A program made the position numbers and the translations under genes. 62,006 nt of DNA from a virus (Duplodnaviria; Caudoviricetes). Each line of letters starts with the position of its first letter. Position 1 is the stretch's first letter. The notes under the pieces are model-generated. The model was not told the origin of the DNA. It saw only the letters and a program-made list of their open reading frames with translations, and did no database searches. Where the stretch lies: the IMG/VR virus record IMGVR_UViG_3300033182_000774, positions 1 to 62,006 of that record; one strand, given 5' to 3'. Below, one piece after another: positions 21,301 through 46,104 of this stretch.

Positions 21301-24300
21301 TTTCAGGATTTAGATACGAGTTTAGTGAATTGGAGGGTACTGGAAGACCCTTTTGTGGTGAAAGCAATAAAAGGGTTTGGCCACGATGGTATTTACGTTA
21401 ATGAGTCGATGTTTTTTGAGCCAGGTCAATACAAAAATAATGAACGCGCTTTTAGTAAAGATTTTAAAAACATAGCTGTATTTGAACCAAACCAAATCAA
21501 ATCCACCTTCAACCGAGGGACATTCAGTAAAGACACTCCAAACATTTCCCAGTCCCGCAGACCAACAGATTTTGACCGCTTTGTTTCCTTTGGCGGGAAG
21601 GCCCCATTAAGACAATACGACAAGAAGAAATTTGATCCTGCTAGGGCACCAAAGAAGACCGCAGAAGACGCAGAGCGTTACGTTGATGCGACCATACTGG
21701 AGGCGATGAAAAACAAAGTCTGGCCTGAGCGATTGGTCAAGGACCTGATGGACTTTGACAGGTTCCCAAAAGTGTTTCAGGACTCCTTCAGAAAATCCCT
21801 GAAATCTGGACTCAGGAAGCGGGAACAGGAACTGGCTAATGCGGTCCTGATGAAAGGCCGTGAAGCATATCTCCAGAAAAAGAAGGGAAATGTCACACCT
21901 AGTGTTACAGCACCCAAGGGTTTTGAGTCTGGTGGTGCCAGATGGAAGGAGTTGGTTGACGATGTTCCGAAGTGGGCGAGGACTACGCCTGAGATTCAGA
22001 GGGCGATGAGGAAGTCAAACATATCTTCTTCCTTACGGCCAGTAGACGCAGACCCAGATCGGTTCAAGCTAGATCCACGGGTGCAGAAGATCAACGAGGA
22101 TCTTGCATCTGGGAAGATCGACAAGGCAACCCAGACTGTCCGGGTGAACAAAATTCTTGGGGAGATCAAACCTTTTAAGGCGGTGCCAGAGCCATCCACC
22201 ATTAACCAGATCAAGGATGCACTTGGCAAAAAGTGGGAGAGGAAATTCATTATTGGCGACAAGGGTCAGAACATCGAGCAGGGTCGCAGGACCTCTGCAC
22301 GTCTGGACATCAACGCATACAAGTTTAAGAACACCTGGGTGCCAACCATTCATGATCCTGAAAACAATAACCAAGTCATTGCCTATGGTCCGACTGCACA
22401 TTTGAAGAATGTCGAATTCCATGGACGAGGAAGTCTGGAAGCTTATGTCGGTAAGGCGTTGAAGGTCGGGTTGACTGGTGCGAAGAACCCGTTTGCGATG
22501 TATGACGGGGACTGGCAACAACACGATGTAAATGCCCTCACAGAGCGCGCAAAAAGCCTCATGAACGACAAAGAATGGACTCAGGTAGGAATGAATCCAT
22601 ACCGACATTCTTTCTTCTATGACCGATCTGGAGGACAGCGAAATGGGCGACCTGTAGTCGGTGCTGATGAGGTGATCCAGATTGGCGGAATGTTGCTGGC
22701 AAAGAACGTCAAATACGGAAACACAGGCGACTTCAAAACCAAGTTCAAGGGCAAAAATATTTCGTTTTCCAAGAGGCTGAAAAAGGCTTCAGATGAAATG
22801 GCCAGCAACCCTGATTTCCAGAAATGGTTCAAAAAATCAAAAATCGTGAATGACGATGGAACCCCAAAAGTGGTCTACCATGGCACAATGTCTGAGAACG
22901 ATTTTAAGACATTCACCGACGAAGAGGCTGGCATGTACCGCGGTGGGCTACTGGCATTTTTCAGTGAAGACCCAACCTTCGCAGATATCTACGCCGGCGG
23001 AGATCCGATCAAGGGTGATGTCAGACCAGAATTAGGCAGAATCCTTCCTGCATTCATCCGTTCAGAAAAACCCTTTGACTACCTCGATGCAAGAGCAGTG
23101 AAGAAGGTGGTAAAGAGCTATCTGAAGGAAGGGCAAGTTTCCAAAAACCAGGCAGATAAAATTGAGTACCTAGACAACGAGGGGGTGATCAGTCTGGGAC
23201 CAAAGTACGCAAACAAGGCAATCACACCATCGGTAGTCAACGAAGAAATACTAACTGAGGCGGTATCCAGTGGCGCATGGGAAGTGATTGAGGATGCATC
23301 CTTCGTTGAGCATGTCCGTGACATGGGATACGACTCAGTCTATGTATCGGAAGAAGGCTCCCGCAACCTAGCGGTGTTTGAGCCACAGCAAATCAAATCT
23401 GTCTTCAATAGGAAGCCGACTGACTCCCCACTGATCAGCCAATCCATCCGTCCGGGGAAAGTTGTTTCTGAGGGTGCGTTTAACCCAATCACTGCAAGAA
23501 TCCTGAGCCGATCTTTGAGGCCAGAAGTCTTGGCAGAGATCAAGGATGGCAAGTACATTAGGATCGCAAGTGATCGATTTGCAACTGGCACCTATAAGCC
23601 AATCGATCCAAACAACCCCTACCTAAAAGATTTCTACATGCGCGGTGGCGTGGGCTACACCATGATCCCAGAAAACCGGGAGGCTGGCGCAATGTGGGCA
23701 TCCGACGACGAAGGAATCCAGCAGGACATTATAAACAAGATTCTTAATGGGGTGCGGTACGGACTGACCTACCTAATGAATCCTGATTCCCATCTCAGCA
23801 ACCGCGCATTTTGGAAAATCTACGAAGGCGAAACACAGTATGCGCTGGACAAGGGTGAGATCGATGCTGACCGGCTGAATGCAAGAATACAAGAGATCCT
23901 AGACAGCACAGCAAAAAAGTGGGCGGACAAGAAGGACGCACCAGGATTAAAAACCATGATCTCAAAAGCGAAGGGTGCGACAAACTGGGATAAGGTTAAA
24001 AGTGTCATCCCTGACAGCACATTTGAGCAACGCAAGGACCTAGTCAAGTGGCTGGGTGGAGATCCTTTCAAGAGCGGGAATTCTAAACGTGCTGCGGATC
24101 TGGCGCAGGGTGCATTTGACGAAGGCAAGCGTACTACAGTCTACGGGGCCGACACCAAAGAACTGTATAAGCGGACCACACAAAATGAAGCCGTGAGGAA
24201 CGCCCCATACGGCGCAGTGATGTCGATTGCGGAATTCTTTCCTGACTTCAAGGGCAAGATGCTCAGTAAGGAATTCGGAAAAAATCTGACAGCAAAGGAC

Positions 24301-27474: not shown

Positions 27475-28581
27475 TTAGAGAACACTTGCTGCTTTTGATC
27501 CACTTCTGCGTCTTTTTGCACGGTAATATTTCTCAGTAGTTGAGATGTTATGGTGACCACTGTGATCATGCACTTCTGCCATTGTTGCACCAGCTTCTAC
27601 CATCAAAGTAATACCTGTTCTTCTCAGCGTTTGTAAAGGGGCATATTTAGGTAATCCAGCCCTGTCTCTAATGTCACCGAATCTTTCGGTAAGATGTCCG
27701 TATCTTTCATAATCACGCTCACCATTCCCCTTATCCAAAAACCATTTTCTGTTGCTGGAACCATCACCCAGATCCTTGATTAAAAAATCTGTGAGTGTTT
27801 GATTGTGTAATTCATTTTCTCTTGGCTTACCCATCTTTGGCAACCAGTCTAAATCTTCAACTTTTTTTATGACAATTCGTGGCGGTTCAGTGTTCATTAT
27901 GATCTGATCCAAAGGGAGTGTCCAAACCTCGGACATCCTCATGATGTTATAGTAACAGAGCATGAAAGTCCTGTTCAAATTTATATCACCCTGAGCAAAA
28001 GTTGCCTCCTTGTAAATCTCGATCTGTTTTCTGGTGAATGTCTCAATGAGTTTTTCGGATTTTGAGACTTTGGGGGGCTTGATCAGATGCTTCAGTTTCC
28101 CTGTCGAGTGGCACCATGTGATGAAGATCTGGAACTGACGTTGATGGCAGTTCACTCCTTCATCCGTGATCCTCGGTAACGACCAGAGGAATTTCTCGAA
28201 AGTGGAGGCGTGTTCCCATGAGTATTCGTCTAGATCATGGTCGCCAATAGCTTCCAGATAGAGATCCGTGGTTCTCTTATAGAAATCCAGTGTCTTCTGT
28301 TTCTTGTTGGATCTTCTTGAGGATGGGCATCCATGCTCATGCCACTGGATGATTGCACTAGAAATAGGATTCTTGATATCTGGTAAGATCCCCCGCTCCT
28401 TTTTCAACTCCTCGTTCTTTTTCTCCCACAACTGATTGATGACGAAGTTGGGAAGACTCTCGTCTTTGGTGAGAAGCTTGATCGGGGCACGGGACTCTCC
28501 GGGGAGTCTCGCATCATGGAAACGTCCCCAGAACCCTTCACGATTCTCAAGTGCGAAGATCTTGATCTTCTTGTTGGCCAT
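27475..28581 (-). CDS. int: Tyrosine integrase
   Basis: IMRMSE (R), PKMGK (K), LQTLRR, SGH..STTEKYY (H, Y); likely start MANKKIK at 28581, coupled to the upstream TGA. Confidence 0.9.
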   Translation of the reverse strand: MANKKIKIFALENREGFWGRFHDARLPGESRAPIKLLTKDESLPNFVINQLWEKKNEELKKERGILPDIKNPISSAIIQWHEHGCPSSRRSNKKQKTLDFYKRTTDLYLEAIGDHDLDEYSWEHASTFEKFLWSLPRITDEGVNCHQRQFQIFITWCHSTGKLKHLIKPPKVSKSEKLIETFTRKQIEIYKEATFAQGDINLNRTFMLCYYNIMRMSEVWTLPLDQIIMNTEPPRIVIKKVEDLDWLPKMGKPRENELHNQTLTDFLIKDLGDGSSNRKWFLDKGNGERDYERYGHLTERFGDIRDRAGLPKYAPLQTLRRTGITLMVEAGATMAEVHDHSGHHNISTTEKYYRAKRRRSGSKAASVL

Positions 28582-28886
28582 CAGGCGGCCAATGCAGCAT
28601 CTATGACATCTTTTGCTTTCTTTTTGCCTACATCTTGAGCCTTGACGCATTTTTCCACCAAACCCTTTGACAGAAAATACTCGCACAACTCATCTCTTGC
28701 ATTATAAAGCGAAATATCTTCAGACATCCCAACTTCGACATCACAACGCTTTTTATCTTCAAACCATTTTCTGTTTGAAAAAGACACTCCGTATTTTTGA
28801 CAGATATTATCGATATCTTTCTCGCAAGACTTCCATGTCTCAAAATCTCCTGCTACCAATTCAAATGACATATCCAGTTTCATCAC
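28581..28886 (-). CDS. Hypothetical protein in the immunity operon
   Basis: GGAG RBS; between repressor and integrase. Confidence 0.65.
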   Translation of the reverse strand: MMKLDMSFELVAGDFETWKSCEKDIDNICQKYGVSFSNRKWFEDKKRCDVEVGMSEDISLYNARDELCEYFLSKGLVEKCVKAQDVGKKKAKDVIDAALAA

Positions 28887-28891
28887 GCTCC

Positions 28892-29266
28892 TTAATTACT
28901 CAGTTCTCTTCTAGCAAATTCCAACGCCATTTTCTGTGCATCTACAGTCTGCTGTAGATACTCGTTTTCTTTTTTTGCAGATGCCAATTCTGCCTTGAGC
29001 TTCTCAATTTCAGCCTGCATCTCCCCTTCAGAGGGCTGTTCGACTGCATACATCTGGCCCTTGCCGTAGAGCAGCCAGTCTGCATTGATTGAATAAGACT
29101 CATTGAGAGTGTTTAAAATATTTGCACTGAATTCCGATTCATTCCGCTCCAGGCGGGATACCTTGCGCTGATCATAGCCAAGCAGATCCGCAAGATGCTT
29201 CTGACTCAGTCGTTCCTTTTTGCGGAAGTCTTTTAAACGACTCCCGGGGGTTTGTTCTAAATCCAT
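28892..29266 (-). CDS. CI-like XRE helix-turn-helix repressor
   Basis: RLKDFRKKERLSQKHLADLLG..VSRLE..INADWLLYGKGQM; C-terminal coiled coil. Confidence 0.88.
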   Translation of the reverse strand: MDLEQTPGSRLKDFRKKERLSQKHLADLLGYDQRKVSRLERNESEFSANILNTLNESYSINADWLLYGKGQMYAVEQPSEGEMQAEIEKLKAELASAKKENEYLQQTVDAQKMALEFARRELSN

Positions 29267-29328
29267 ATTGATTTTGGGTTTTCAGATTTTGTTTTTTCTA
29301 AACATAACGCCCTTTCTGAAAAAAAAGT

Positions 29329-29356
29329 TTGACATAGGCATAGAATGCACTATTTT
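29329..29356 (+). promoter_or_regulatory. Rightward lytic promoter, divergent from the repressor
   Basis: TTGACA-N16-TATTTT preceded by an A-tract. Confidence 0.55.
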
Positions 29357-29413
29357 AAGGCATCCTGATTACATATTTGCCTACTGATTGTCGCTGATTG
29401 CGAAGGATTCAAG

Positions 29414-35319: not shown

Positions 35320-35591
35320 CTACCACAAAGGTCCACCACACATCACGCTCAGGCCAAGAGCCGTCACTGACAGCCGTAACGGGTGAAATACACCATCGTG
35401 GGGATGATGGAGCAAGTGTCAGTCAGGTTGAATATTCCTGCTTACTAGCGGTTCAAAACGATGTAGGCCCCCTGAAAAAGCCTGAAAGTTGTCTGAGCGG
35501 GATGCCTCTCTTGAGATGGAAGCGGGAGATCCGCACCAATCAAAAAGGGGAGGAATTCTATCACTATTACATCAAAGGAGTGCCTAGATGA
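35316..35591 (+). CDS. Hypothetical protein
   Basis: Operon position; overlaps the primase stop. Confidence 0.45.
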   Translation: MTTTKVHHTSRSGQEPSLTAVTGEIHHRGDDGASVSQVEYSCLLAVQNDVGPLKKPESCLSGMPLLRWKREIRTNQKGEEFYHYYIKGVPR

Positions 35592-35911
35592 AATCAAACT
35601 ACAACCACCAAATGATCATCTTCTTCCAGCATGAGCCATGGAAGAAAACCATGAACCCACGGATCTACATCAGCCCGTGCGGAAACTACAGAATCAAGCG
35701 GTCAGCTGGCAGGCTGTATTCTGGCAAGGACAACAGAACCGAATTGTTTACGCTGGATAAAAACGAAAATTGGCAACACGTCGGTTATTACGCCGACACC
35801 CCGGAAGCCAAATCCGCTGCTGGCTACAAAGAGAAATATGTCAGCGCATCTGGCGTTGCACTCAACGATGCCGGCATTAAGGAATATCTCGCGCGTAAGG
35901 AGGCGGCATGA
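35588..35911 (+). CDS. Hypothetical protein
   Basis: AAGGAG RBS; ends KEAA, coupled to the next gene. Confidence 0.6.
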   Translation: MKSNYNHQMIIFFQHEPWKKTMNPRIYISPCGNYRIKRSAGRLYSGKDNRTELFTLDKNENWQHVGYYADTPEAKSAAGYKEKYVSASGVALNDAGIKEYLARKEAA

Positions 35912-36135
35912 GGGAGTATAAGGGAGTATGGGGGAGTAAAAGGTTGTCTAAAAGTTTGATCACCCCATTAGAACAACTCGAACTGGACAACTTCCACCTC
36001 CGGGAAAAAGACGAACCACGGAACCGATGTAGTTTTTGTCGGAACGACTCCCTAGTGGAAGCACATGGACACCACCATTGCACCTATTGCGGTCAGGCAA
36101 ACTTCGTCTGCTGTGATGGGGAGATGGCTGGTTAA
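35908..36135 (+). CDS. Small Zn-finger protein
   Basis: CSFC..HGHHHCTYC..CCDG; AGGAGG RBS. Confidence 0.65.
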   Translation: MREYKGVWGSKRLSKSLITPLEQLELDNFHLREKDEPRNRCSFCRNDSLVEAHGHHHCTYCGQANFVCCDGEMAG

Positions 36136-36138
36136 CGA

Positions 36139-36347
36139 ATTGGCAGGGTGGCCCCATCCGTAAGGACGGGCTGGCTAACTGAAGCATATTTTAGTCAACA
36201 GACCGACTGCAATAATGCGGAAGGCTGATTTTAAAAACATTAGCGGTGAGGCTCCGAAGGCTGTAGACCCGCAAAGATTGTTTTTTGCGACAAATAATAT
36301 GGCTGGTTGCTTGTTACTTCACGTTAGTTCTTCAACACCCTGCTAAT
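36139..36347 (+). ncRNA. Predicted structured ncRNA (about 209 nt)
   Basis: 12-bp closing stem ATTGGCAGGGTG/CACCCTGCTAAT (G-U pair valid only on +); GTAA-capped hairpin; GCTAACTGAAG/CTTCACGTTAGT inner helix. Confidence 0.55.
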
Positions 36348-36353
36348 GATCAC

Positions 36354-36423
36354 GCCCCGTGTATGGCCTGTGGTTTAACTTAGGTTGAGCTCGCCACAGA
36401 TCACCATAGTGGAGCCACGGGGC
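36354..36423 (+). ncRNA. Second structured element (nested stem-loop)
   Basis: GCCCCGTG/CACGGGGC, TATGG/CCATA, CTGTGG/CCACAG and GTTTAAC/GTTGAGC nested helices. Confidence 0.5.
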
Positions 36424-36457
36424 ACCTACCCGGACACTTTAAAGACACTTTTAAGAC

Positions 36458-36925
36458 ATGTATGAAAACAGGCTTACCTTTGTGAAATTCAGCCACTTTG
36501 TTGAATACAAGCAGAAAGGAAAGTTCGTTCAAAAGATTCCACATGATGTCTATCAATGTTCATGTGGAAACCAGAAAACCATTGAACGATACAAGGTCAA
36601 AAACGGAAGGACGCGGTCCTGTGGCTGTCTCGCAAAAGAGGTTCATTCCAAGCGGATGAAATCTGAAGAGATGGTCAAACACCGCAGGGTTGGTGGAAAC
36701 GAAGGCAATAAATACGGAGCAGGACCTAAAAAAGGGAATGTGCCGTTCAACAAGGGGAAAGTGTTCATGCCTGACCGACCAGGGAGGTTTGGAAGCACTG
36801 GATATTACGTTACGCCAGAAAGGGCGGATGCCATCTATTATGACCTCGAAGGTGAGGTTCATTCGGCAAGAGTTAAGGTTGCCCACAACAAAGGGAAAAA
36901 ATTCAAAGACGGGAAATACATATGA
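36458..36925 (+). CDS. Protein derived from homing-endonuclease DNA-binding modules
   Basis: CSCGN..GRTRSCGC Zn module plus two NUMOD3-like (P/A)(F/H)NKGK motifs; no HNH catalytic motif seen. Confidence 0.6.
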   Translation: MYENRLTFVKFSHFVEYKQKGKFVQKIPHDVYQCSCGNQKTIERYKVKNGRTRSCGCLAKEVHSKRMKSEEMVKHRRVGGNEGNKYGAGPKKGNVPFNKGKVFMPDRPGRFGSTGYYVTPERADAIYYDLEGEVHSARVKVAHNKGKKFKDGKYI

Positions 36926-37104
36926 ATGATTTTGAAAGACTGGTCAAAGAAATGCGGGAAGCACAAAAACGATTCTTCGCCGCGAAAAAATCCGGGGAGT
37001 CGAAGGCTTTGCTGTCAGCCAAATTGGATGCGGCTGTCACCCTAGAAGATAAAGTGGATACCCATCTGATGGGTCAGATGACTATGAAATTCGATCTGGA
37101 TTAA
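36922..37104 (+). CDS. Hypothetical protein
   Basis: F..LV.EMREAQK.FF..LE.KVD small phage protein pattern; ATGA coupling. Confidence 0.6.
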   Translation: MNDFERLVKEMREAQKRFFAAKKSGESKALLSAKLDAAVTLEDKVDTHLMGQMTMKFDLD

Positions 37105-37106
37105 TT

Positions 37107-37559
37107 ATGTTTCAAAATCACCAGGATGGTGTGATTTGCGAATTGGAAGCCAGGAAAGAATTTAATAAATTTGGCTGGTACACCTATGATGCTGACAGCC
37201 AGTTTTGTCCCGATGATTTTGTGGCTCGATCTGGGGACCAGATGTATTCTGTGTCCGTTAAAAAAGCCACTTTTGAAAGAAATGTTGAAGGATCGATGGC
37301 AATTCAACTCGCATCAAATCCACCACATAATGTGCCATTTTCTAAATGCCACTACGACATTGTCGCTGGGGTCAGCCTGGAATTGGGTAAGACGTTTTTA
37401 ATCAGAAAATGCGATACCGATGTCGAAACCTATATCACATTAAGATTTAATCGGGATTTGAGGAAATCCGGTGGTCGTCACTCCCATGATCCTGACATCT
37501 TTTTCCGACCTGATTGGTTCACCAAACAAGACTTCTCCCTTCCGCTCCACGTCGGTTAG
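37107..37559 (+). CDS. PD-(D/E)XK endonuclease-like protein
   Basis: G..CE..A, PDDFV, SVSVK motifs. Confidence 0.65.
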   Translation: MFQNHQDGVICELEARKEFNKFGWYTYDADSQFCPDDFVARSGDQMYSVSVKKATFERNVEGSMAIQLASNPPHNVPFSKCHYDIVAGVSLELGKTFLIRKCDTDVETYITLRFNRDLRKSGGRHSHDPDIFFRPDWFTKQDFSLPLHVG

Positions 37560-37880
37560 TCAAGATTTGAGTAATCTTGACCAATTTACCCAAGCCGTAA
37601 AGCATTGAAAATATTAAAGAAAGGGCCGAAAATCGGCATTTCTTGAATTTTTGAGTAGGTTAACGTGTATAGACATAGGTATATGGGTGTGGGGGTAAAA
37701 ACACGTTAGGTTACTCAAAAGTTCAAGAATATATATAAGATATATATAAATATATAAATATATATAATAAATACAGTAGTTTAGTGTAGTGAATTTCTCT
37801 GACTAAATCACTCAAAACTACTCAAAATTAGTCAGAGAATTCAAGAAATCGGGGATTTGGGGCCGAAATCGACCCCGAGG
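37559..37880. other. Probable replication origin
   Basis: Three inverted-repeat sets, TACTCAAAA-like repeats and a 45-nt pure A/T tract, at the junction of convergent operons. Confidence 0.55.
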
Positions 37881-37955
37881 GAGGGTGTACACCAATGTGT
37901 GTACGTTAAATTACTCCAAGTGACTTATCATCACTACCTAAAATAACGCTCCACG

Positions 37956-38309
37956 TTAATTTAACTTAACGCTGTTGATTTCCATCCAATGTCTTCGAAA
38001 TATCTCCAGCAGAATATCGAATTGCAGGAAAGTGTCTTTCTGATCAATCATGTGGAAAGTTTCGACTAAGGATGAGCGTAACCCACCCAAGGCCAGCCAG
38101 CCTTCCTGAACCTTGAGCTCGTCATTTGACATGATCTTGTCGGTGCAGTCTGCGATCATCCACCAGATGCTGGGGATCTTCACATTATCCTTCTCTGCTT
38201 GATCATGATTCTTTTCGTCCAGGATGTTTAGTCCTCTCGCCATTTCCGTTTCTTTCAAGGCGATTTCCTTGACTGCATCGATGGCTTTTTTTGATGTTGC
38301 TAGTTGCAT
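37956..38309 (-). CDS. Hypothetical protein
   Basis: AAGGA RBS; follows the recombinase. Confidence 0.6.
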   Translation of the reverse strand: MQLATSKKAIDAVKEIALKETEMARGLNILDEKNHDQAEKDNVKIPSIWWMIADCTDKIMSNDELKVQEGWLALGGLRSSLVETFHMIDQKDTFLQFDILLEIFRRHWMEINSVKLN

Positions 38310-38311
38310 AA

Positions 38312-38989
38312 TTATCCTTCCAAAAGGCGTTTGATTTGTGGGGCTGCGAGTGGCTTCCCAGACTCTTGGGAAAACCCTTCATGAAAGAGAGCAGAAGCTA
38401 TGTCACGATAAGAAAGCAGAAGTTTTGACCCTTTGCCTTGCTTTCGGAGTTTCTTTGCTCTGGTGAAGATTTTGCGACCATACCTTTCCTCTAGGGACTT
38501 CCTTCCTTCACACTTTCCTGTCTCTGCTTTGACACGATCTCTGGCTACTTTTAACTGCTGGACTGTGCTGTCCTTTTGATATTCGGCAATGACTCCCAAG
38601 ATTTGGCGAATCATCTTCATGGAGGGACTACCATCAGAGAAATAATTCGGAGCATCGGCTGGAATGATGTGAATCCCAAGACTTTTGAGATCCTGAAATC
38701 CTAATTCCTGAACCACGACATCTCTGGAAAACCGGTCAGCCCTTTCACAGATAATCGTGTCAATGGAATGTTCCTCACAGTATTTTATCAATGCTGACAT
38801 CCCCTGCCTAGATCTGACTGGATCTGTTCCAGAAACTGCCTCATCCCAAGCACTTATCACTACTTCGTATCCATATGCCTTAGCATATGCATGAATCGCC
38901 TCCTGCTGGCGTTTTTCGGAATCACCCTCCACGTTAGTTGCGGAGGATGTTCTTAGATAGCCTACAGCCTTTTTAAGAGGTTTTGACAT
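38312..38989 (-). CDS. Serine recombinase (resolvase/invertase family)
   Basis: AVGYLRTSS catalytic Ser, DEAVSG..R, DRFSR, GRK; likely start MSKPLKK. Confidence 0.9.
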   Translation of the reverse strand: MSKPLKKAVGYLRTSSATNVEGDSEKRQQEAIHAYAKAYGYEVVISAWDEAVSGTDPVRSRQGMSALIKYCEEHSIDTIICERADRFSRDVVVQELGFQDLKSLGIHIIPADAPNYFSDGSPSMKMIRQILGVIAEYQKDSTVQQLKVARDRVKAETGKCEGRKSLEERYGRKIFTRAKKLRKQGKGSKLLLSYRDIASALFHEGFSQESGKPLAAPQIKRLLEG

Positions 38990-39374
38990 TAGGTTCCTTT
39001 CCAAATTGTTTTGCGACATCTAACCAATTGTGAAACTCCCGATCAACATCATCTAAAATTTCTTCTAATATCCCCCACGCCCAATCATTTAAGTTTTCTA
39101 CTGAAAGAACATCAGATCCTTCATATTCGTAAACACATGGGAAAACTACTTGAGGTGTGTCGTAATCTATATCCCATACATCATTGTCATCATAACCATG
39201 CTCTTCAGGGTCAAAGTAGAACTGAAGTATGGTAGGGTCTTCATTGTTTCTTTCACGTTCATAACATGCAGCTTTTGCATCTGTATTCTTTTCAAAATAA
39301 TCACTTAGTTCGATCATGTTGGTCATTCCAAGCAACATAATCAACTCTTGAGGGTTGTCTATAATTATTTTCAT
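38973..39374 (-). CDS. Highly acidic small protein
   Basis: D/E-rich, 133 aa. Confidence 0.6.
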   Translation of the reverse strand: MKIIIDNPQELIMLLGMTNMIELSDYFEKNTDAKAACYERERNNEDPTILQFYFDPEEHGYDDNDVWDIDYDTPQVVFPCVYEYEGSDVLSVENLNDWAWGILEEILDDVDREFHNWLDVAKQFGKEPNVKTS

Positions 39375-39778
39375 AATTCCCTCCTATTTTTTATTGCCTT
39401 TATTTCTTCAAAAACAGAAAACTCCAATCCGTAAAGACTATTAAGAGCATCTACAAAAGTTAATGTAGGTTCGCCCTCTTCTTCCCAACCCATTTCAATA
39501 CACCTTGAAACAATATCGTCTAGGTTTACCTTTATGTCTCTTTTGATTTGATTTGGTGGTATGGGTTTCTTTATAAATGCAATGACTTGCATATCCTCAT
39601 CTAAACCATCAATCCAATCCGTTTCATTGTACGCTGTAAAAAAGTCAGAGCAGTCTGCTGGTTCATTTATCATTTCAAGGATACTTTCTACGTCTAAGTA
39701 AGATGCTTCCTGAACACCATAATGAGACATAACTGCACCTTTGAATTCTGATGATCTGTTTGCGTTGATAAATTTCAT
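39371..39778 (-). CDS. Acidic hypothetical protein
   Basis: ATGA-coupled; AAGGA RBS. Confidence 0.6.
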   Translation of the reverse strand: MKFINANRSSEFKGAVMSHYGVQEASYLDVESILEMINEPADCSDFFTAYNETDWIDGLDEDMQVIAFIKKPIPPNQIKRDIKVNLDDIVSRCIEMGWEEEGEPTLTFVDALNSLYGLEFSVFEEIKAIKNRREL

Positions 39779-40242
39779 AATTCCTTCACATATCGTTGTT
39801 TTCTGCCAGTTGGCAATTTAGTGGATCTTGGTCTAGAGGGACACGACCATTTTCCACCATTGGTTAACCCATCAAAATCCCATCCACATGCCTTCATTGC
39901 CGTTGCTTTTTCGTTCAGCAAAAAGTAAGTGTAGATCTTTTTAAATCCACGCCTTTTTGCTTCACGACATGCCCAACCATAAAATTTGGAATTTGCGTTG
40001 AAGGTATAATGTTTTGGGATATCTGTTCGAACACATGATCGGTTGACCTCCAGAGTAGATCCATCGTCCAATGCTCTGGCTACTGGTCTACCGACCATGA
40101 TGACACCGACCATGATCTGGTCCTGAAACCAGACCGATGCACCAAACTTCCATCCATGCGGAGGATTTGGTAAGTGTCGGTGATGCTGGCGAATAAAATC
40201 CTTCGCCAGCGATTGCTTAACAGGCTGGATAACTAAAGCCAT
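39775..40242 (-). CDS. XF1762-like protein (GNAT or Mom-related)
   Basis: FIRQHHRH..GWKF..VGRPVARALDDG.TLEVNR.C...K.R. Confidence 0.7.
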   Translation of the reverse strand: MALVIQPVKQSLAKDFIRQHHRHLPNPPHGWKFGASVWFQDQIMVGVIMVGRPVARALDDGSTLEVNRSCVRTDIPKHYTFNANSKFYGWACREAKRRGFKKIYTYFLLNEKATAMKACGWDFDGLTNGGKWSCPSRPRSTKLPTGRKQRYVKEL

Positions 40243-40611
40243 TTAGTTAACTACTCTATTCGTTTTCTTAATGGCTTGTTCACGATTACTTACTTCCTTT
40301 AACACGGAGCGTGAAATAGAAAGTAAAGTTGAGACAGTTTCCTGATCTGCATTTTCCTGCAAGGCCAGCACTTGACCTTGAGGTTCATCCATCGGAATAC
40401 CGCCGTTTTTAATGATGCGTTTCGCTTTAAGGAAACGCTTACGAGAATTCTCGCCATTTAAACAAACACGCTGACCATCGGTTCGTTCAAATAAATATAC
40501 AGCTGGGTCACCATTATCGTTAATAACGTGTTGTCCAGGTTGTATATGTTCTGCGTTTTTAACCTGAGTTTTGGTTAATCTTTTTTGATAGGAAGTTCTT
40601 GATTTAGCCAT
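40243..40611 (-). CDS. Hypothetical protein
   Basis: AAGGA RBS; abuts the next gene. Confidence 0.6.
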   Translation of the reverse strand: MAKSRTSYQKRLTKTQVKNAEHIQPGQHVINDNGDPAVYLFERTDGQRVCLNGENSRKRFLKAKRIIKNGGIPMDEPQGQVLALQENADQETVSTLLSISRSVLKEVSNREQAIKKTNRVVN

Positions 40612-40801
40612 AGGTTTTATCCTTTGTGATGATTTGTGAAACAGTTACTTTAGGGACGTACCGATACTCAACTAACATTCTCTGACCACATCCATTACCT
40701 TCGTCATCTTCACAGTAGAGTTTCATATCTCCGCAAAGATCATTCTTGTAAGGAATTCTGATTGAGATTTGTTCGCTACAATGAGGACATGTTATGAACA
40801 T
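40604..40801 (-). CDS. Zn-ribbon protein
   Basis: MFITCPHC..C......GCG; AGGA RBS (shorter than the ORF-track call). Confidence 0.6.
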   Translation of the reverse strand: MFITCPHCSEQISIRIPYKNDLCGDMKLYCEDDEGNGCGQRMLVEYRYVPKVTVSQIITKDKTYG

Positions 40802-40802
40802 A

Positions 40803-41444
40803 TTACTTTCCTGTTTCTGGTTCCATTCCACGCATGGTCTTCCACACATGTAAATCAACATGTGCAGTAGCCCAACCCCTGAAATGTAAATCAAATAATC
40901 TCAATGCTTGGTGTTCAAAATAGCCATAGGCAATTTTCGTTGTTGGAGTGTTTTGAGGAGCATTCACGCCATATATTCTTAGCCATCTCAATATGTGTAC
41001 ATCCAATGGAACACATTCAGCGTTTTCACGACTGTGCAGAATAAAGAAACGTGAAGTTTTCTTGCCAAGAAGCTTTTCTATTTCTTCAACTGGAGCAGTT
41101 CTTAGCCATTCAGTTTCTGGGAATCTTTTGATAGCCCCAGCGATTCGGTTGTACTGACCAGTTTTGTACAACTTCAGTAAAGATTTTAACGGACCTAGTT
41201 CATATCGTTTTAATGCAGTCATGATCCCCTCTTTATTCTGGAACCAATGTGCCTCAACGATTCGGTTGGTTATGTCAGCCATGCGATGTGCTGGCTTGTT
41301 TGCTGTTAACAAAGAAAACAAACAAAACGCCTCCAGTTCGAAGTCATTTCGCTCAAAATTTGTCACAGTATCTGGACAAACTACTGGTGGCTTTTCCCCT
41401 GGATTGACTAATTCTTGGAATGATTTCATTGCGAGTTCTGTCAT
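40803..41444 (-). CDS. HhH-GPD DNA glycosylase-like protein (OGG-like)
   Basis: F.LLTAN, GKKTSRFF (Lys), PLDVHILRWL (Asp), DLHVW. Confidence 0.7.
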   Translation of the reverse strand: MTELAMKSFQELVNPGEKPPVVCPDTVTNFERNDFELEAFCLFSLLTANKPAHRMADITNRIVEAHWFQNKEGIMTALKRYELGPLKSLLKLYKTGQYNRIAGAIKRFPETEWLRTAPVEEIEKLLGKKTSRFFILHSRENAECVPLDVHILRWLRIYGVNAPQNTPTTKIAYGYFEHQALRLFDLHFRGWATAHVDLHVWKTMRGMEPETGK

Positions 41445-41445
41445 A

Positions 41446-41622
41446 TTAATTTCCTTGTACTAAGATTGAAGTTAAGCCTGCTTCGTCGCAGGATTTAGCA
41501 CCACATTCACTACACTCGTTTATGTGCAAATACCACTGACCAAATGGGAATTGATATAGGCCATCATGATCACCCTCAATATTCCCACAAGACATGCAAT
41601 GCACCTCATACTGTTCAGCCAT
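41446..41622 (-). CDS. 58-aa Zn-finger protein (not in ORF track)
   Basis: MAEQYEVHCMSC...ECSECG; GGAG RBS within the repeat motif. Confidence 0.6.
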   Translation of the reverse strand: MAEQYEVHCMSCGNIEGDHDGLYQFPFGQWYLHINECSECGAKSCDEAGLTSILVQGN

Positions 41623-41642
41623 TATTGCTCCACGTTAGTTAG

Positions 41643-41846
41643 TTATTGTCCACAAACAAAACACACATTATTTTTATAATTGGGTGTTTCTGCTCCGCAA
41701 TCAAAGCATTCAGAAAACTCAATTAAATCATCAATGTTATTTTGTTTATTATGGTTGTTTATTTTGTTAACCAAATCATAAACCTTGCTTGGTCCATCAC
41801 TACAATAAACAACATAAAGAATATGTTGTAATGTCTTTTGATCCAT
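41643..41846 (-). CDS. Small Zn-finger protein
   Basis: CFDC...CFVCG; GGAG RBS within the repeat motif. Confidence 0.6.
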   Translation of the reverse strand: MDQKTLQHILYVVYCSDGPSKVYDLVNKINNHNKQNNIDDLIEFSECFDCGAETPNYKNNVCFVCGQ

Positions 41847-41848
41847 AA

Positions 41849-41989
41849 TCACTCCACGTTAGTTGTTGATACTTTGTTTAGTTTCCGTTGTTTCTTTCCG
41901 TAAACCTTTCCAGACTTTTTAGTCTTTTGTTTGAATCGTTTAAACCAGTTGTCCCAAAGTATTCCCTTCTCCACGTTTATCTTGTCCAT
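41849..41989 (-). CDS. 46-aa lysine-rich peptide (not in ORF track)
   Basis: MDKINVEKGILWDNWFKRFKQK...TTNVE; GGAG RBS. Confidence 0.5.
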   Translation of the reverse strand: MDKINVEKGILWDNWFKRFKQKTKKSGKVYGKKQRKLNKVSTTNVE

Positions 41990-42021
41990 ACTATGCTCCA
42001 CGTTTACTTATCATCATTGCC

Positions 42022-42058
42022 AAAAAAAAGGGATGTAGCCCAAAGGACTACACCCCTT
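42022..42058 (-). terminator. Rho-independent terminator after the methyltransferase
   Basis: GGGGTGTAGTCC-TTTG-GGCTACATCCC stem followed by T8. Confidence 0.85.
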
Positions 42059-42062
42059 CCAG

Positions 42063-43478
42063 TTAACTAAATAATGGTTTTAATTGGTTACCAATCCACT
42101 CAATCACATTGACTGTAACCGCATTGCCCATCTGGCGATATCGTTGACTGTCAGATATCGGAACGACTTCACCCTTGTCGTTTATTCCTTGAGCGTTCCA
42201 ATCGTCAGGAAACCCCTGTAAACGACATGTTTCTACAGGGGTGAGCCTTCTGATCACGATATCGTCTTTCCTTTGCACCAGAGGCGTATTATTGCCTCCT
42301 GTGCCCCATCTCTGGGCTATTGTAGGACAGACTTCTTTCGGTCCAGTTATGCGTGAATCATTTGGATGGGATTCGTAGAGTTCCTGCTGAACCAAATGCA
42401 TATCTCCACGATATTTATTTTCACCACATTGGATGGTTGCAGATACGTCAGATTCAACGTATCTGTAATGGGACAAGGGACTGTAGGCTACAAGATCAGT
42501 ATGATCTTTATAGTCCCTTGCTTTGAGGGTTGATGCTGTTTCATCATTGGTATATTCACCACTACCAAATCGTTGTAATCTGAAACCAACTGGTTCCATT
42601 ACATTAGTTTCATAATCACCACGTTTTGTAGTTGCTTGTAATGTCGGAGAAACTCCCTGACCATAGTCAGTTAATTTCCCATGCTTTCTTAATTCTGCTC
42701 TCTGGAATGCTACTGCAGGAGGGGCACCACCTCTGGTCGATCCTACTTTCAATGCTCCACTAAATTCTTCCGTGTAGCATCCACCCATTGAACCACCAGT
42801 TGATGGGAAACTTATAGTTCTGAATCGACTATCTTTTCCAAGTTTACTTTCAACTGCTCTGGGATCACTTTCCCTTTGTTCTTTGCCCTTCTCAATATCC
42901 CAGCACATGCTTTTGCTGAGAGTTTGTATTTGTTCGCAGAATCCCTCTGCAAAATCTCTGTCAGTCTCACGGAAGGAGAAGATAAAAATCCTCTTCCTTC
43001 GTTGAGGGACCCCAAAGAACTGACTATCAATTGTGATCCAGAAGGTCGCAGAATACCCGATTTCGGAAAGTTGGTTGAGGACATATTGGAAACTTTCATA
43101 GTGTCTTTTTGATGTAAGGTTAGCTACGTTTTCTGCAATTGCTACTCTTGGTTGAGTCGCATTAATAATTCTGATTGCTTCATCAAATAATGATGATCTT
43201 TCTCCATGTAATATTCCCTTTTGCTTTCCTGCCAAACTAATGTCCTGACATGGGAAACCATAAGTGAATATATCAACATAAGGTAGTTTGGTTTCATCAA
43301 CTAATGAAACATCAGAATGCAATTCTGTTTCTGGAAAACGATAACGTAAAACATTCTGACAATGTTTATCCCATTCAATGGAATATTTATGCTCCACATT
43401 AGTTGATCCAAAGGCATACATTAAACCTAATGGGAAACCACCTACTCCTTCAAATGCTCCACCAATTTTAATTTTCAT
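42063..43478 (-). CDS. dcm: DNA cytosine-5 methyltransferase with expanded variable region
   Basis: FEGVGG (I), GFPCQDIS (IV), ENV (VI), PQRRKR (VIII), RRLTP.E..RLQGFP (IX), YRQMGNAV (X). Confidence 0.93.
   Translation of the reverse strand: MKIKIGGAFEGVGGFPLGLMYAFGSTNVEHKYSIEWDKHCQNVLRYRFPETELHSDVSLVDETKLPYVDIFTYGFPCQDISLAGKQKGILHGERSSLFDEAIRIINATQPRVAIAENVANLTSKRHYESFQYVLNQLSEIGYSATFWITIDSQFFGVPQRRKRIFIFSFRETDRDFAEGFCEQIQTLSKSMCWDIEKGKEQRESDPRAVESKLGKDSRFRTISFPSTGGSMGGCYTEEFSGALKVGSTRGGAPPAVAFQRAELRKHGKLTDYGQGVSPTLQATTKRGDYETNVMEPVGFRLQRFGSGEYTNDETASTLKARDYKDHTDLVAYSPLSHYRYVESDVSATIQCGENKYRGDMHLVQQELYESHPNDSRITGPKEVCPTIAQRWGTGGNNTPLVQRKDDIVIRRLTPVETCRLQGFPDDWNAQGINDKGEVVPISDSQRYRQMGNAVTVNVIEWIGNQLKPLFS
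42812..43099 (-). CDS. Overlapping alternative-frame protein inside dcm
   Basis: FPKSG..RLTEILQ....KYKLSAKACAGILRRA..KGK.IP..L resembles the small polypeptides found beside or within C5-MTase genes. Confidence 0.6.
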   Translation of the reverse strand: MKVSNMSSTNFPKSGILRPSGSQLIVSSLGSLNEGRGFLSSPSVRLTEILQRDSANKYKLSAKACAGILRRAKNKGKVIPEQLKVNLEKIVDSEL

Positions 43479-43587
43479 TTGGCTTACTCCAGAAAAGTTT
43501 AAAAGCTATTTCTTTTGCTTCGTATTCATCACAACCTTCGTCAAGCAATGCTTGATATAAATCTTCCAATACCTTTTGGTTATCCAT
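43468..43587 (-). CDS. 39-aa peptide (not in ORF track)
   Basis: MDNQKVLEDLYQALLDEGCDEYEAKEIAF; GAGG RBS. Confidence 0.5.
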   Translation of the reverse strand: MDNQKVLEDLYQALLDEGCDEYEAKEIAFKLFWSKPNEN

Positions 43588-43831
43588 AGTTCCTCACTAA
43601 ATGAGAGTTTCCTTCAATTAACAAAATTACATCTTCCAAAACATCACAACATCCCTGCTGAAAATGCATTTCTTCAGCGTCATCAGAATCAAGATCTGAT
43701 GAACTAAAATTCAATTCATGAATATTCTTTCTAAGGCATGTGTCCCATTGAATGTCATTCATGATTTCCTGCTTTAAATGCAGTTGTCTTTTTAAGTAAG
43801 CGATCACTTTAAGTTTGTATTTATGTTCCAT
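43580..43831 (-). CDS. Hypothetical protein
   Basis: Preceded by a motif variant. Confidence 0.55.
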   Translation of the reverse strand: MEHKYKLKVIAYLKRQLHLKQEIMNDIQWDTCLRKNIHELNFSSSDLDSDDAEEMHFQQGCCDVLEDVILLIEGNSHLVRNYG

Positions 43832-43865
43832 TTTAAACTCGAAGTTAATGGTTGCGGGTAACCAG

Positions 43866-44084
43866 TTAGTTCTGATACTTGAGTGTTAATTCAAGCTCTT
43901 TTCTAGACCATATGTTGCTCTTCTCTAATGGCACAGTATCTGTGAATGGAACCAAGATTAAACTGGCTCCAGCCTCTGCTTTGAAATACATAGAATCAGA
44001 TCCATTCAAAGCCTCATTAATAACTGAAGCTATAGTTTCGCTATCGTTTACTTTCCAAAGGATTGGTGGATTGAATTTATACAT
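43866..44084 (-). CDS. Hypothetical protein
   Basis: Preceded by CAATCAACTTGGAG. Confidence 0.6.
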   Translation of the reverse strand: MYKFNPPILWKVNDSETIASVINEALNGSDSMYFKAEAGASLILVPFTDTVPLEKSNIWSRKELELTLKYQN

Positions 44085-44103
44085 AAATACTCCAAGTTGA
44101 TTG

Positions 44104-44403
44104 TTAATAAACTACTTTGAAAAGTTTCCCATCATATCTATCTCCTGCTAAATGCTGATCGCATAGATCACAAATACAATTGGAGAAGTATGATTGTATT
44201 TCTTCATCATCTGGCTCACTATCTGGTGGACAAAAAACTAATCCTTTTTTAGTTAATTGATCTGCTCCATGTTCTACTCTTTCAATGGTTTCTTCTTCAT
44301 CGTCATGTAGTGCTAAATAGGACATGTCACCAGATACTTGGAATACAAAACAATCACTACAAATGCGTACATCATCATGAAATTTATATGTTGGTATTTT
44401 CAT
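44104..44403 (-). CDS. Acidic Zn-binding protein
   Basis: ICSDC...FS..ICDLC....GDRY. Confidence 0.6.
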   Translation of the reverse strand: MKIPTYKFHDDVRICSDCFVFQVSGDMSYLALHDDEEETIERVEHGADQLTKKGLVFCPPDSEPDDEEIQSYFSNCICDLCDQHLAGDRYDGKLFKVVY

Positions 44404-44407
44404 ATTG

Positions 44408-44578
44408 TTATCCTAATTGAGATTGAACCGATTCAAGAATGTCTTCTGGTACACCAGCCAGCCATCCGATTAATAAAATATTTTGTCTTTCTTTCTCATA
44501 TTCCATTTCAATATAATGAAGTTCTTTTGCTTCATATTCACCTATAGTTTCATCCCAACATCTTTCTCTAAATTTCAT
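44408..44578 (-). CDS. 56-aa acidic protein (not in ORF track)
   Basis: MKFRERCWDETIGEYE...; TTAACTTGGAG RBS. Confidence 0.55.
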   Translation of the reverse strand: MKFRERCWDETIGEYEAKELHYIEMEYEKERQNILLIGWLAGVPEDILESVQSQLG

Positions 44579-44937
44579 TTAATACTCCAAGTTAATGTTT
44601 GCGACATTACAGTTTTAATATGGTCAGCGTATCTGTCTTTCCTTCTGATCTTTCCTCTGGATGCAGGATGAACACATGGAATGAAACTAATGCCCATATC
44701 AGTTAATGCTTTTTGTACTTTCTTGCCCATTGCAATGATGGGCATTTGGTTAACAAAGGAAGGAATTAATTCTGGAGTTTCAAATACATTCAAGAATGTA
44801 TAGTCTGATGGTTCGTAACCATTGGTCCGTAATGCATCAAACAATTGCTTTCCAGCCAATCGACCATCTTCCCATCTAACATTCATCTCAATGGCTTTTT
44901 GAGATCTTTCCTCACCAACAAATAATGCTTTGTACAT
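44575..44937 (-). CDS. Minimal uracil-DNA-glycosylase-superfamily-like protein
   Basis: LFVGE, F.NVF, IIAMGK...AL and HPASR motifs; start MYKALF after the GGAG RBS. Confidence 0.55.
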   Translation of the reverse strand: MYKALFVGEERSQKAIEMNVRWEDGRLAGKQLFDALRTNGYEPSDYTFLNVFETPELIPSFVNQMPIIAMGKKVQKALTDMGISFIPCVHPASRGKIRRKDRYADHIKTVMSQTLTWSIK

Positions 44938-44950
44938 AGAATTCTCCATG

Positions 44951-45013
44951 TTAGTTATTGACAACAAAACTATCGTTTACTTTCCAAAGGATTGGTGGAT
45001 TGAATTTATACAT
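44951..45013 (-). other. 20-codon chimeric mini-ORF
   Basis: MYKFNPPILWKVNDS (start of the 44084 gene) joined to FVVNN-stop (end of the 46104 gene). Confidence 0.8.
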
Positions 45014-45033
45014 AAATACTCCAAGTTGATTGG
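44970..45033 (+). repeat. About 63-bp direct repeat of 44041-44103
   Basis: ctatcgtttactttccaaaggattggtggattgaatttatacataaatactccaagttgattg occurs twice. Confidence 0.92.
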
Positions 45034-45345
45034 TTAAGTTAAGTATGCAACAACATCATATGGATATTGTTTTTTCCCATCAGATTTATACCAAGACATT
45101 GATAATTGATACTTGCAGAATTCATCAATATTGATTGGTGCTATTTGGAAAATGGCATTACCTTCCCTACCACAAAGTAAACATTCCAAATTGGTGAGAT
45201 CTTCATTGACTAATCGGTAGCCATACAATTTAAGGATGGTATCAATCTCACTGATTGGGATATCTTTAAACCATCCACCATTACCAATTGAAGACATTAA
45301 ACTATTAATAGCTTTACCAATTTTGTTTCTTTCTTTTGCTTTCAT
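45034..45345 (-). CDS. Hypothetical protein
   Basis: IP..EI..IL..YG...L.MSWYK..Y.VVAYL pattern; GGAG RBS. Confidence 0.6.
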   Translation of the reverse strand: MKAKERNKIGKAINSLMSSIGNGGWFKDIPISEIDTILKLYGYRLVNEDLTNLECLLCGREGNAIFQIAPINIDEFCKYQLSMSWYKSDGKKQYPYDVVAYLT

Positions 45346-45366
45346 TTAAAACTCCAAATTGATTGA

Positions 45367-46104
45367 TTAATTATTGACAACAAAACCAGACACATCCTGC
45401 TTTGCTTTACCTTTTGCTACTAGACCAACAATGGATGATCTAACATCAGTAAAACGTAAATCATGCTTGTCACCATTAATGACAGGCATGTCTTGCCAAG
45501 ATGGATTTAAATCAGAAGAGAAAACAACAGCGACATTTCCACCTAATGAAACTATTTTTTTAATGTCGTTAATGTCCGTAGTTTCATCTCTGGAAAATGT
45601 GAGATGGTAGTTTACTGGTAGTTCGTCATTGACAAACTTGAACATCCTACGTTTATTCTTTGTATAATCGTAGAAGGTAACATTGGGATTGTTAGTAATG
45701 ATGGATTCATTACTGTTTGGGAGTTTAATATTCTCCCATGGAATATCTGAGGAACCATTAAGCCTAACTGCTGGCTTTAAACCTTTCTTTTTGCACTTCT
45801 TTACAAATGCTTTTATCTCATCATCTAGTTGATTTAAAAATGCTTCACGTTGATTGACAAAGAATAAGGTTTTTTTAATCCTTGCGTCCTTAATACTTTG
45901 CTGATGCCAGACTCTGCCAGCAAACTCACCTAAACAGGCATTTCGACAACCATCAGAAGCATGTCCACAAAGATTTGCACCACCATGAGGAACAGAAATA
46001 TCGGAAGGAGATAAATAAATAATTGCAGTTAAATACTCACCTAAGGCATCAGATTTTGATGTCTTTGCATTGTTGTCTACACCAAGGATTTTTTGCTGTG
46101 CCAT
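45367..46104 (-). CDS. GP88-like protein (radical-SAM-related Cys cluster)
   Basis: NAKT.K, LC..AS.GC...CL, AVRLNG.SD, FYDYTK, YHLTFS, GD..DLRF.D, GL.AKG. Confidence 0.75.
   Translation of the reverse strand: MAQQKILGVDNNAKTSKSDALGEYLTAIIYLSPSDISVPHGGANLCGHASDGCRNACLGEFAGRVWHQQSIKDARIKKTLFFVNQREAFLNQLDDEIKAFVKKCKKKGLKPAVRLNGSSDIPWENIKLPNSNESIITNNPNVTFYDYTKNKRRMFKFVNDELPVNYHLTFSRDETTDINDIKKIVSLGGNVAVVFSSDLNPSWQDMPVINGDKHDLRFTDVRSSIVGLVAKGKAKQDVSGFVVNN

Follow-up and report, generated by a model that had tools for sequence, protein, structure and literature searches.

A strand-specific 13-nt repeat resembling start-associated sequences, and its reversed copy in a structured spacer, in an uncultured marine temperate phage

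The P1 c4 and P4 CI antisense RNAs are encoded by temperate phages and are complementary to ribosome-site sequence, a sense-like copy of which is part of the same transcript. Stoperators are 13-bp asymmetric DNA sites bound by a repressor; they are present in many copies, are oriented with transcription and also occur at the early promoter. The stoperators of Cluster A mycobacteriophages are mentioned in Pope et al. (2011; PMC3203893), a study whose sections on Cluster K describe the start-associated sequences (SAS), 13-bp asymmetric motifs with a Shine-Dalgarno core that are located 3-9 bp 5' of 11-19 start codons in the non-structural arm. The function of SAS is described as unknown in the pertinent passages of that study and of two later ones (PMC11373665; PMC12699233). 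In Adephagia, late transcription is reported, in the part of the literature that deals with it, to start in the gp92-gp93 spacer. The PeSLs of T4-type phages are presented, in the relevant parts of Arbiol et al. (2010; PMC2839356), as composites of a sigma-70 promoter and a terminator stem-loop. Here we compare with these systems a repeat family and a structured spacer of a phage that is temperate, tailed, marine and uncultured.

The window, that is the whole stretch of 62,006 bp that was analyzed, is a complete IMG/VR viral record, parts of which are contained in marine metagenome runs. The early-right (replication) operon on the + strand starts after the integrase and repressor genes and encodes, along with the primase-helicase, an exonuclease-like protein, a Sak4-like annealing protein and RusA (Table 1). 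A minus-strand array (37,956-46,104) of approximately 19 mostly small genes, the products of which include a DNA methyltransferase, a Mom-like protein and a serine recombinase, has a GC content of 34-41% in 2-kb bins, compared to 43-51% elsewhere; the genes for the small and large terminase subunits, the portal and the major head protein begin at 46.8 kb. Two non-coding gaps exceed all others of the genome in length: 36136-36457 (322 nt), where the structured element discussed below is located, and 37560-37955 (396 nt). No tRNA or tmRNA was found. An ORF of 2,981 aa (18328-27273) is located after the tail genes. The record ends, 1-300 and 61405-61704, are repeats of each other with 94% identity over 300 nt, which may reflect an imperfect overlap from a mixed-strain assembly or two paralogous gene starts.

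Table 1. Positions in the window of the spacer element, the motif copies and the neighboring genes
Feature	Position	Strand	Remarks
Integrase	27475-28686	-	
HTH repressor	28892-29266	-	
Primase-helicase, 779 aa	32980-35319	+	
Spacer element, predicted multi-branch domain closed by two long-range helices	36139-36347 (209 nt)	+	fold
Closing helix, 12 pairs, one G-U	36139-36150 with 36336-36347	+	pair probability 1.0
Sense-like arm ('mimic', GGCTAAC-TGAAG)	36173-36184	+	predicted to pair with 36317-36329; probabilities 0.90-0.91
8-bp hairpin	36270-36289	+	
Spacer copy AACTAACGTGAAG, 1 mismatch; 'anti-motif' in + RNA	36317-36329	-	
85-nt module	36348-36432	.	lost in one related strain (run X1, joint 36347>36433)
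Tandem 11-nt GACAC-type repeats	36433-36459	+	directly 5' of the HNH start
HNH endonuclease-like ORF	36458-36925	+	phrog_374, E 1.3e-07
Weaker copy AACCGACGTGGAG, 2 mismatches, exact 8-mer core	37545-37557	-	antisense to the 3' end of + ORF 37107-37559
Orphan copy	37949-37961	-	end of array; TAA is the stop of ORF 37956-38309
Exact copy in serine recombinase coding sequence	38927-38939	-	codons T-N-V-E
Exact copy	41628-41640	-	5 nt 5' of ATG of 58-aa ORF 41446-41622
Exact copy	41852-41864	-	5 nt 5' of ATG 41846; encodes C-terminal T-N-V-E of upstream 50-aa ORF
8-mer core ACGTGGAG	41996-42003	-	6 nt 5' of ATG, after terminator-like hairpin with T-run
Copy, 1 mismatch, in DNA methyltransferase coding sequence	43392-43404	-	T-N-V-E frame
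Copy, 1 mismatch	44944-44956	-	6 nt 5' of ATG of 120-aa ORF 44575-44937

An earlier note on this DNA had proposed that an RNA of about 209 nt from the replication operon acts as a switchable small RNA which pairs with the Shine-Dalgarno-containing motif AACTAACGTGGAG in front of several minus-strand genes and silences these genes as a set; this interpretation is partly supported by the present analysis. The motif joins a possible stop codon (TAA) to a Shine-Dalgarno core (GGAG) and is not palindromic. The genome contains three exact copies, seven copies at one mismatch or fewer, where only 0.06 are expected, and nine at two or fewer (0.93 expected), so that chance, for which the earlier note had left room, does not explain the match. 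All copies are on the minus strand, whatever the direction of the local genes, and span 36.3-45.0 kb; the 8-mer core is found seven times on the minus strand and never on the + strand. Thus described, AACTAACGTGGAG is a lineage-specific and strand-specific repeat of the low-GC accessory array (37.9-46.1 kb). Three of the seven copies lie 5-6 nt 5' of an ATG, two are in coding sequence, one is an orphan and one is in the spacer. The putative targets are thus a mixed set, and the match is better regarded as belonging to a strand-specific DNA repeat family. That the motif stands before several minus-strand genes, as the earlier note had it, is too strong: exact copies precede the starts at 41622 and 41846, the third is inside the recombinase gene, and the 13-mer accompanies only 3 of the 19 array starts. 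A shorter relative of the motif, AAYTTGGAG, precedes the starts of three further array genes.

The copies at 38927, 41852 and 43392 share the T-N-V-E reading frame, which at 41628 comes after a stop codon. Given that the recombinase peptide ATN(V/L)(E/D)G is retained with different codons in six relatives, coding constraint partly explains the copy at 38927. The spacer copy is homologous to the remaining copies over the 13 nt only, and not in the flanks. The segment 36317-36329 is complementary to the motif because the spacer contains one more copy of this strand-specific repeat, in a region that is transcribed in the opposite direction. Another repeat, the 10-mer GATGATAAGT, is present five times, always on the minus strand (5357, 11240, 37923, 42006 and 47322); at 42006 it is located between the terminator-like hairpin and the motif-core ribosome site and at 37923 directly after the orphan motif. 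The AT-rich non-coding region 37560-37955 separates the convergent + strand operon from the minus-strand array. Inverted repeats are nested in it (37623-37649 with 37838-37864), and it also contains TA-rich repeats in a row, a palindrome at 37625-37637 that resembles a bidirectional terminator, and a hairpin (37639-37730) with a stem of about 28 bp and TAACGTG on both arms; a terminator zone and an origin are possible roles of this region.

Strain variation was followed in related-strain contigs from four marine DNA runs of four studies, aligned at 80% identity or higher. Related strains differ by single small genes, exactly at the motif. The joints 41444>41621 (run X5) and 41448>41852 plus three letters (runs X10 and X8) result in the motif being followed by a 7-nt spacer and the ATG of the gene 40803-41444, and in X5 and X8 an extra 261-269 letters are present immediately downstream of the orphan copy (insertions at 37936-37946). 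The copy at 44944 adjoins a perfect 63-nt direct repeat (44041-44103 and 44970-45032) which duplicates the ribosome site and the first 15 codons of the gene 43866-44084 and yields a truncated 20-codon ORF ending at the TAA of this motif copy; the DNA between the 63-nt repeats has little or no cover in three of the four runs. From these joints, insertions and the duplication, the motif behaves as a junction of modular exchange, at which genes are gained and lost among strains. As far as the description of PeSLs by Arbiol et al. extends, the two systems are alike in that short conserved repeats populate a hyperplastic accessory region and that strains gain, lose or replace small genes exactly at the repeats; unlike the PeSLs, the 13-mer comes without promoter and without terminator and is a junction of stop codon and ribosome site. 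An invertible segment for the serine recombinase was also considered and rejected as unsupported, since the motif copies are without exception in direct orientation and no pair of long inverted repeats was detected.

The structured element lies between the + strand ORF 35908-36135 and the HNH ORF, that is, inside the + strand operon, and to this extent the location assigned to it in the earlier note stands. The + strand of 36139-36347 folds at -71.4 kcal/mol (z -3.33, with none of 200 shuffles as good) versus -59.9 kcal/mol for the minus strand (z -2.35, 1 of 200 shuffles as good); the multi-helix character and + strand preference noticed previously are thus reproduced, and the ends that had been given to the element coincide exactly with the closing helix. 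Inside this helix, 36173-36184 and 36317-36329 are predicted to form a second helix of 12 bp. In each of four transcript contexts, ranging from 209 nt to a 1.3-kb operon transcript, the pairs of both long-range helices are predicted with probabilities of 0.90-1.0. The helices contain three non-Watson-Crick pairs, each of which is G-U on the + strand, in agreement with the strand assignment made before. The proposal that the complementary segment is masked by a sense-like mimic holds as well in the predicted fold, the mean unpaired probability of 36317-36329 being 0.13. The sense-like arm is a poor copy of the motif, with three mismatches and a deletion; the two arms are inverted relative to each other and separated by about 145 bp, and GAAG is present in both helix arms, the consensus being GGAG. 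According to these predictions, the + strand domain is robustly folded, with one reversed copy of the motif paired in it.

The complementarity of the segment to AACTAACGTGGAG at 13 of 13 positions, with one G-U, is confirmed, three exact copies being available as partners, two of them at ribosome sites. The longer match that had been pointed out, in which GTTACTTCACGTTAGTT at 36313-36329 pairs at 17 of 17 positions with 41848-41864 (three G-U), is present in this sequence, but its 4-nt extension does not persist among strains: 36312-36315 is altered in two to three of the four runs (36313-36315 in X1 and X5), and these changes disrupt a weak A-U helix, with no compensation among the differences listed. 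Of the other population changes within it, 36276 G>A replaces a G-U pair of the 36270-36289 hairpin by A-U, and 36307 T>C is at a loop position. The strain differences inside the element are taken from the differences listed, with at least 726 further variant positions in existence, so that the absence of listed variants in the long helices is no evidence of conservation.

On the 3' side of the element, the HNH ORF is replaced or missing in related strains (joints 36447>36911 and 36486>36916). Within the element, some related-strain contigs align at 36228-36294 only, runs X1 and X8 having loose contig ends at these positions; X8 also contains a 1,479-nt contig with ~89% identity. GACAC(T)-TTTWAA repeats with 96% identity over 29 nt also precede unrelated genes in two distant relatives (L027, 3171-3199; L022, ~205-240), and the GACAC-type repeats look like a shared promoter or operator. 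Two other candidates for the content of the spacer were rejected: the 43-aa + strand ORF 36215-36346 is unlikely to be a gene, having no ribosome site and showing the strain changes R>K and LL>YP, and a group I intron or HNH-associated RNA family found no match in Rfam.

An Rfam search of the whole window at the gathering score yielded no matches, C4 included, and a search of 35500-38100 at E<=10 yielded none in 36139-36347, only chance-level matches of miRNA models to the 37639-37730 hairpin. The Rfam check recommended in the earlier note thus assigns the element to no family, and its C4-type precedent is not backed by a C4 match. Simple scans of both strands of 36136-36457 detected neither a sigma-70-like promoter nor an intrinsic terminator with a U-tract; at the motif copies, no sigma-70-like promoter was found and a terminator-like hairpin was seen before the 42003 variant only. 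When the element was compared with all 45-nt windows in a hybridization-only scan, the motif sites were not above background, with none of them among the 25 best windows and random windows reaching -42 to -46 kcal/mol. The 24 runs listed for the phage include no RNA runs. With no promoter or terminator in these scans, a seed that is predicted to be paired and no Rfam match, the analysis does not uphold the switchable, discrete small RNA.

Close relatives of the phage are represented by primase proteins with 99%, 86% and 74% identity. IMG/VR scans for such relatives, using the primase and three DNA patterns from the element, retrieved 0 loci; a blastn search with the spacer against 50,697 phage records gave no match, a tblastn search with the primase gave matches below 60% identity only, and a metagenome scan with generic TOPRIM patterns gave only distant proteins, with at most 42% identity. 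Distant relatives, comprising 43 IMG/VR loci with about 44% primase identity, share the replication genes and have no spacer element and no obvious repeated start motif; in the whole records of five of them the 13-mer occurs at the control level. A k-mer neighbor count for two complete relatives was dominated by low-complexity words.

We also analyzed the SAS of Cluster K. In Anaya, SAS are present in 16 copies on the + strand and in one copy, with one mismatch, on the minus strand, the latter in the 385-nt gp96-gp97 spacer (L125, 39683-40067). The fold of this spacer has a z of -5.96 on the + strand and -2.86 on the minus strand, and in the MFE fold the reversed SAS occupies the apical loop and upper stem of a hairpin. 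The arrangement is the same in the gp92-gp93 spacer of Adephagia (L140, 1948-2379); the structured spacers of these K1 mycobacteriophages, 385-432 nt in length, begin with a terminator-like hairpin. The Anaya spacer matches 182 mycobacteriophage records. Among 15 matching records that were examined, six have the reversed copy at one mismatch or fewer and one has it at two mismatches, four possess the hairpin with a diverged, pyrimidine-rich loop, and a simple search finds none in the remaining four. In an alignment of 11 Cluster K hairpin sequences, compensatory changes are found in 5 of the 16 predicted pairs, and the consensus fold retains the loop.

The repeat family of the marine phage resembles SAS in several respects: it is an asymmetric repeat of about 13 bp with a Shine-Dalgarno core that occurs far above chance (7 versus 0.06), some of its copies are located a few nucleotides 5' of non-structural gene starts, sometimes including the upstream stop codon, and it is confined to one orientation and to the non-structural region, reversed copies being rare (here those at 36317 and 37545, antisense to the local genes). 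Moreover, in both cases a long structured spacer contains one reversed copy that has one mismatch and is not associated with a gene start. Unlike SAS, however, AACTAACGTGGAG belongs to an unrelated phage lineage (marine, not Actinobacteria), and it is unrelated to the Cluster K consensus GGGATAGGAGCCC, which makes it an analogue rather than a member by descent. There are seven copies here compared to 11-19 in Cluster K; virtually all SAS are at starts, whereas here three of the seven copies are start-associated and two are in coding sequence; and the reversed copy is in a helix here but in an apical loop in Cluster K. ESAS-like 17-bp inverted repeats were not noticed in the window. By analogy, the Cluster K parallel raises the prior for an anti-motif RNA, without being a test of this window. 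Our literature search retrieved no paper that combines 'start-associated sequence' with 'antisense RNA'.

Considering these results, we tentatively favor a scenario in which the motif belongs to a SAS-like family of junction motifs, the spacer copy is sequestered in a cis RNA structure, and the complementarity stems from family membership and not from regulation. Under this scenario, the element would act in cis, as an RNA structure within the transcript of the early-right operon, where it would mark a boundary, direct processing or affect stability at the point where the conserved replication genes meet the mobile HNH cassette, and would not be a free multi-target small RNA. The motif would act in a SAS-like manner, as a unit of translation start and gene junction, and could serve as microhomology for cassette exchange; its complementarity to ribosome sites would be a consequence of repeat membership, with no regulatory use. 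Several observations speak against this reading. The GAAG shared by both arms, together with the G-U pairs on the + strand, suggests selection on a + strand RNA in which the motif copy takes part; the operon has another, weaker reversed copy at its 3' end; no terminator with a U-tract was found in the spacer; and the reversed SAS of Cluster K, which is located in a conserved structured spacer, would by analogy render a functional anti-motif more plausible.

Three other explanations have to be weighed. It is improbable, in our estimate, that the motif is primarily a DNA-level site, where a phage protein would bind the 13-mer or its core TAACGTG, the inverted pair in the spacer would be an operator, a looping or a replication element, and the RNA complementarity would be irrelevant. 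That the copies ignore coding status (coding, ribosome site, orphan and spacer) and keep to one DNA strand regardless of the local gene direction is what such a site would lead one to see, as are the TAACGTG cores carried by each arm of the 37639-37730 hairpin in the AT-rich region of 396 nt and the inverted arrangement of the two spacer arms; the motif is also like the stoperators in being 13 bp long, asymmetric, repeated and oriented with transcription. Unlike stoperators, it has no copy at two mismatches or fewer in the gap between the repressor and early genes (29267-29413), which argues against a repressor site of this type, and it has GGAG at ribosome-site distance from ATGs, which points to a role at the RNA level; furthermore, it lacks the symmetry of a palindrome, the left arm is a degenerate copy, and no candidate binding protein was identified. 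We are equally doubtful that the spacer copy is a relic, namely an orphan junction from a past cassette exchange or inversion with an incidental fold. The copy at 37949 indeed shows that junction motifs outlive their genes, and the spacer belongs to a mosaic hot spot, with its variable HNH gene, 85-nt indel and contigs that match an internal segment only, but the fold is well beyond shuffled sequences (z -3.33) with robust helices, no junction homology extends beyond 13 nt, and a pairing partner arm requires a further coincidence. Given that the helix keeps its pairing, with GAAG in both arms and the G-U pairs on the + strand, a neutral relic is not expected.

An anti-motif riboregulator appears rather unlikely as well. 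In this case, a + strand RNA, either the transcript of the operon or a fragment processed from it, would pair through the unmasked segment 36317-36329 with the motifs in minus-strand mRNAs, resulting in a ribosome block at the 41622, 41846 and 44937 starts or in cleavage at the coding-sequence copies. The full 13-nt pairing, which chance does not explain at 0.06 copies expected per genome, is consistent with such a role, and so are the location between + strand genes, owing to which it is the complement that is transcribed, and the preference of the fold and of its G-U pairs for the + strand. The second, partial anti-motif at 37545-37557 is in the same operon, and among the variant target copies, of which there are three, two carry a C>T change that would preserve pairing as G-U. 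In Cluster K, the reversed SAS lies in the predicted apical loop of a hairpin with compensatory changes in 5 of 16 pairs, and its spacer is where late transcription of Adephagia is reported to start. However, the seed is predicted to be paired here, the RNA is delimited by neither promoter nor terminator in our scans, the 17-nt extension is not conserved, the 13-mer is found at few array starts, the G>A change in the variant target at 44949 would create an A-C mismatch, and hybridization does not single out the motif sites. The comparison with P1 c4 and P4 CI is similarly divided: a temperate phage, complementarity to ribosome sites and a sense-like copy in one transcript are common to all, but the putative targets here are on the opposite strand, 1.6-8.6 kb away and outside the operon of the element, the fold predicts a complementary segment that is paired rather than exposed, and the element matches neither C4 nor another Rfam family.

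This uncultured marine temperate phage provides an independent, unrelated example of a SAS-like system. It is conceivable, if not likely, that in two temperate phage lineages without relation to each other, SAS-type motifs are accompanied by a dedicated 'anti-SAS' RNA: in both, a single reverse copy would be found in the most structured long spacer of the genome, in the sense of the major operon transcript. If this is the case, the anti-SAS RNA would pair with the mRNAs that contain the motif, would thereby turn an entire class of accessory or early genes off (or on) at a defined stage, and would account for the purpose of the start-associated sequences, a question that has been open since 2011 and, to judge from the passages on SAS in papers of 2024 and 2025 (PMC11373665; PMC12699233), still is. 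An anti-motif RNA is therefore a concrete, testable hypothesis for both systems, including the tractable phages of Mycobacterium smegmatis. Should the reversed copies prove inert, the repeat would still be a clear case of motif-mediated modular shuffling.
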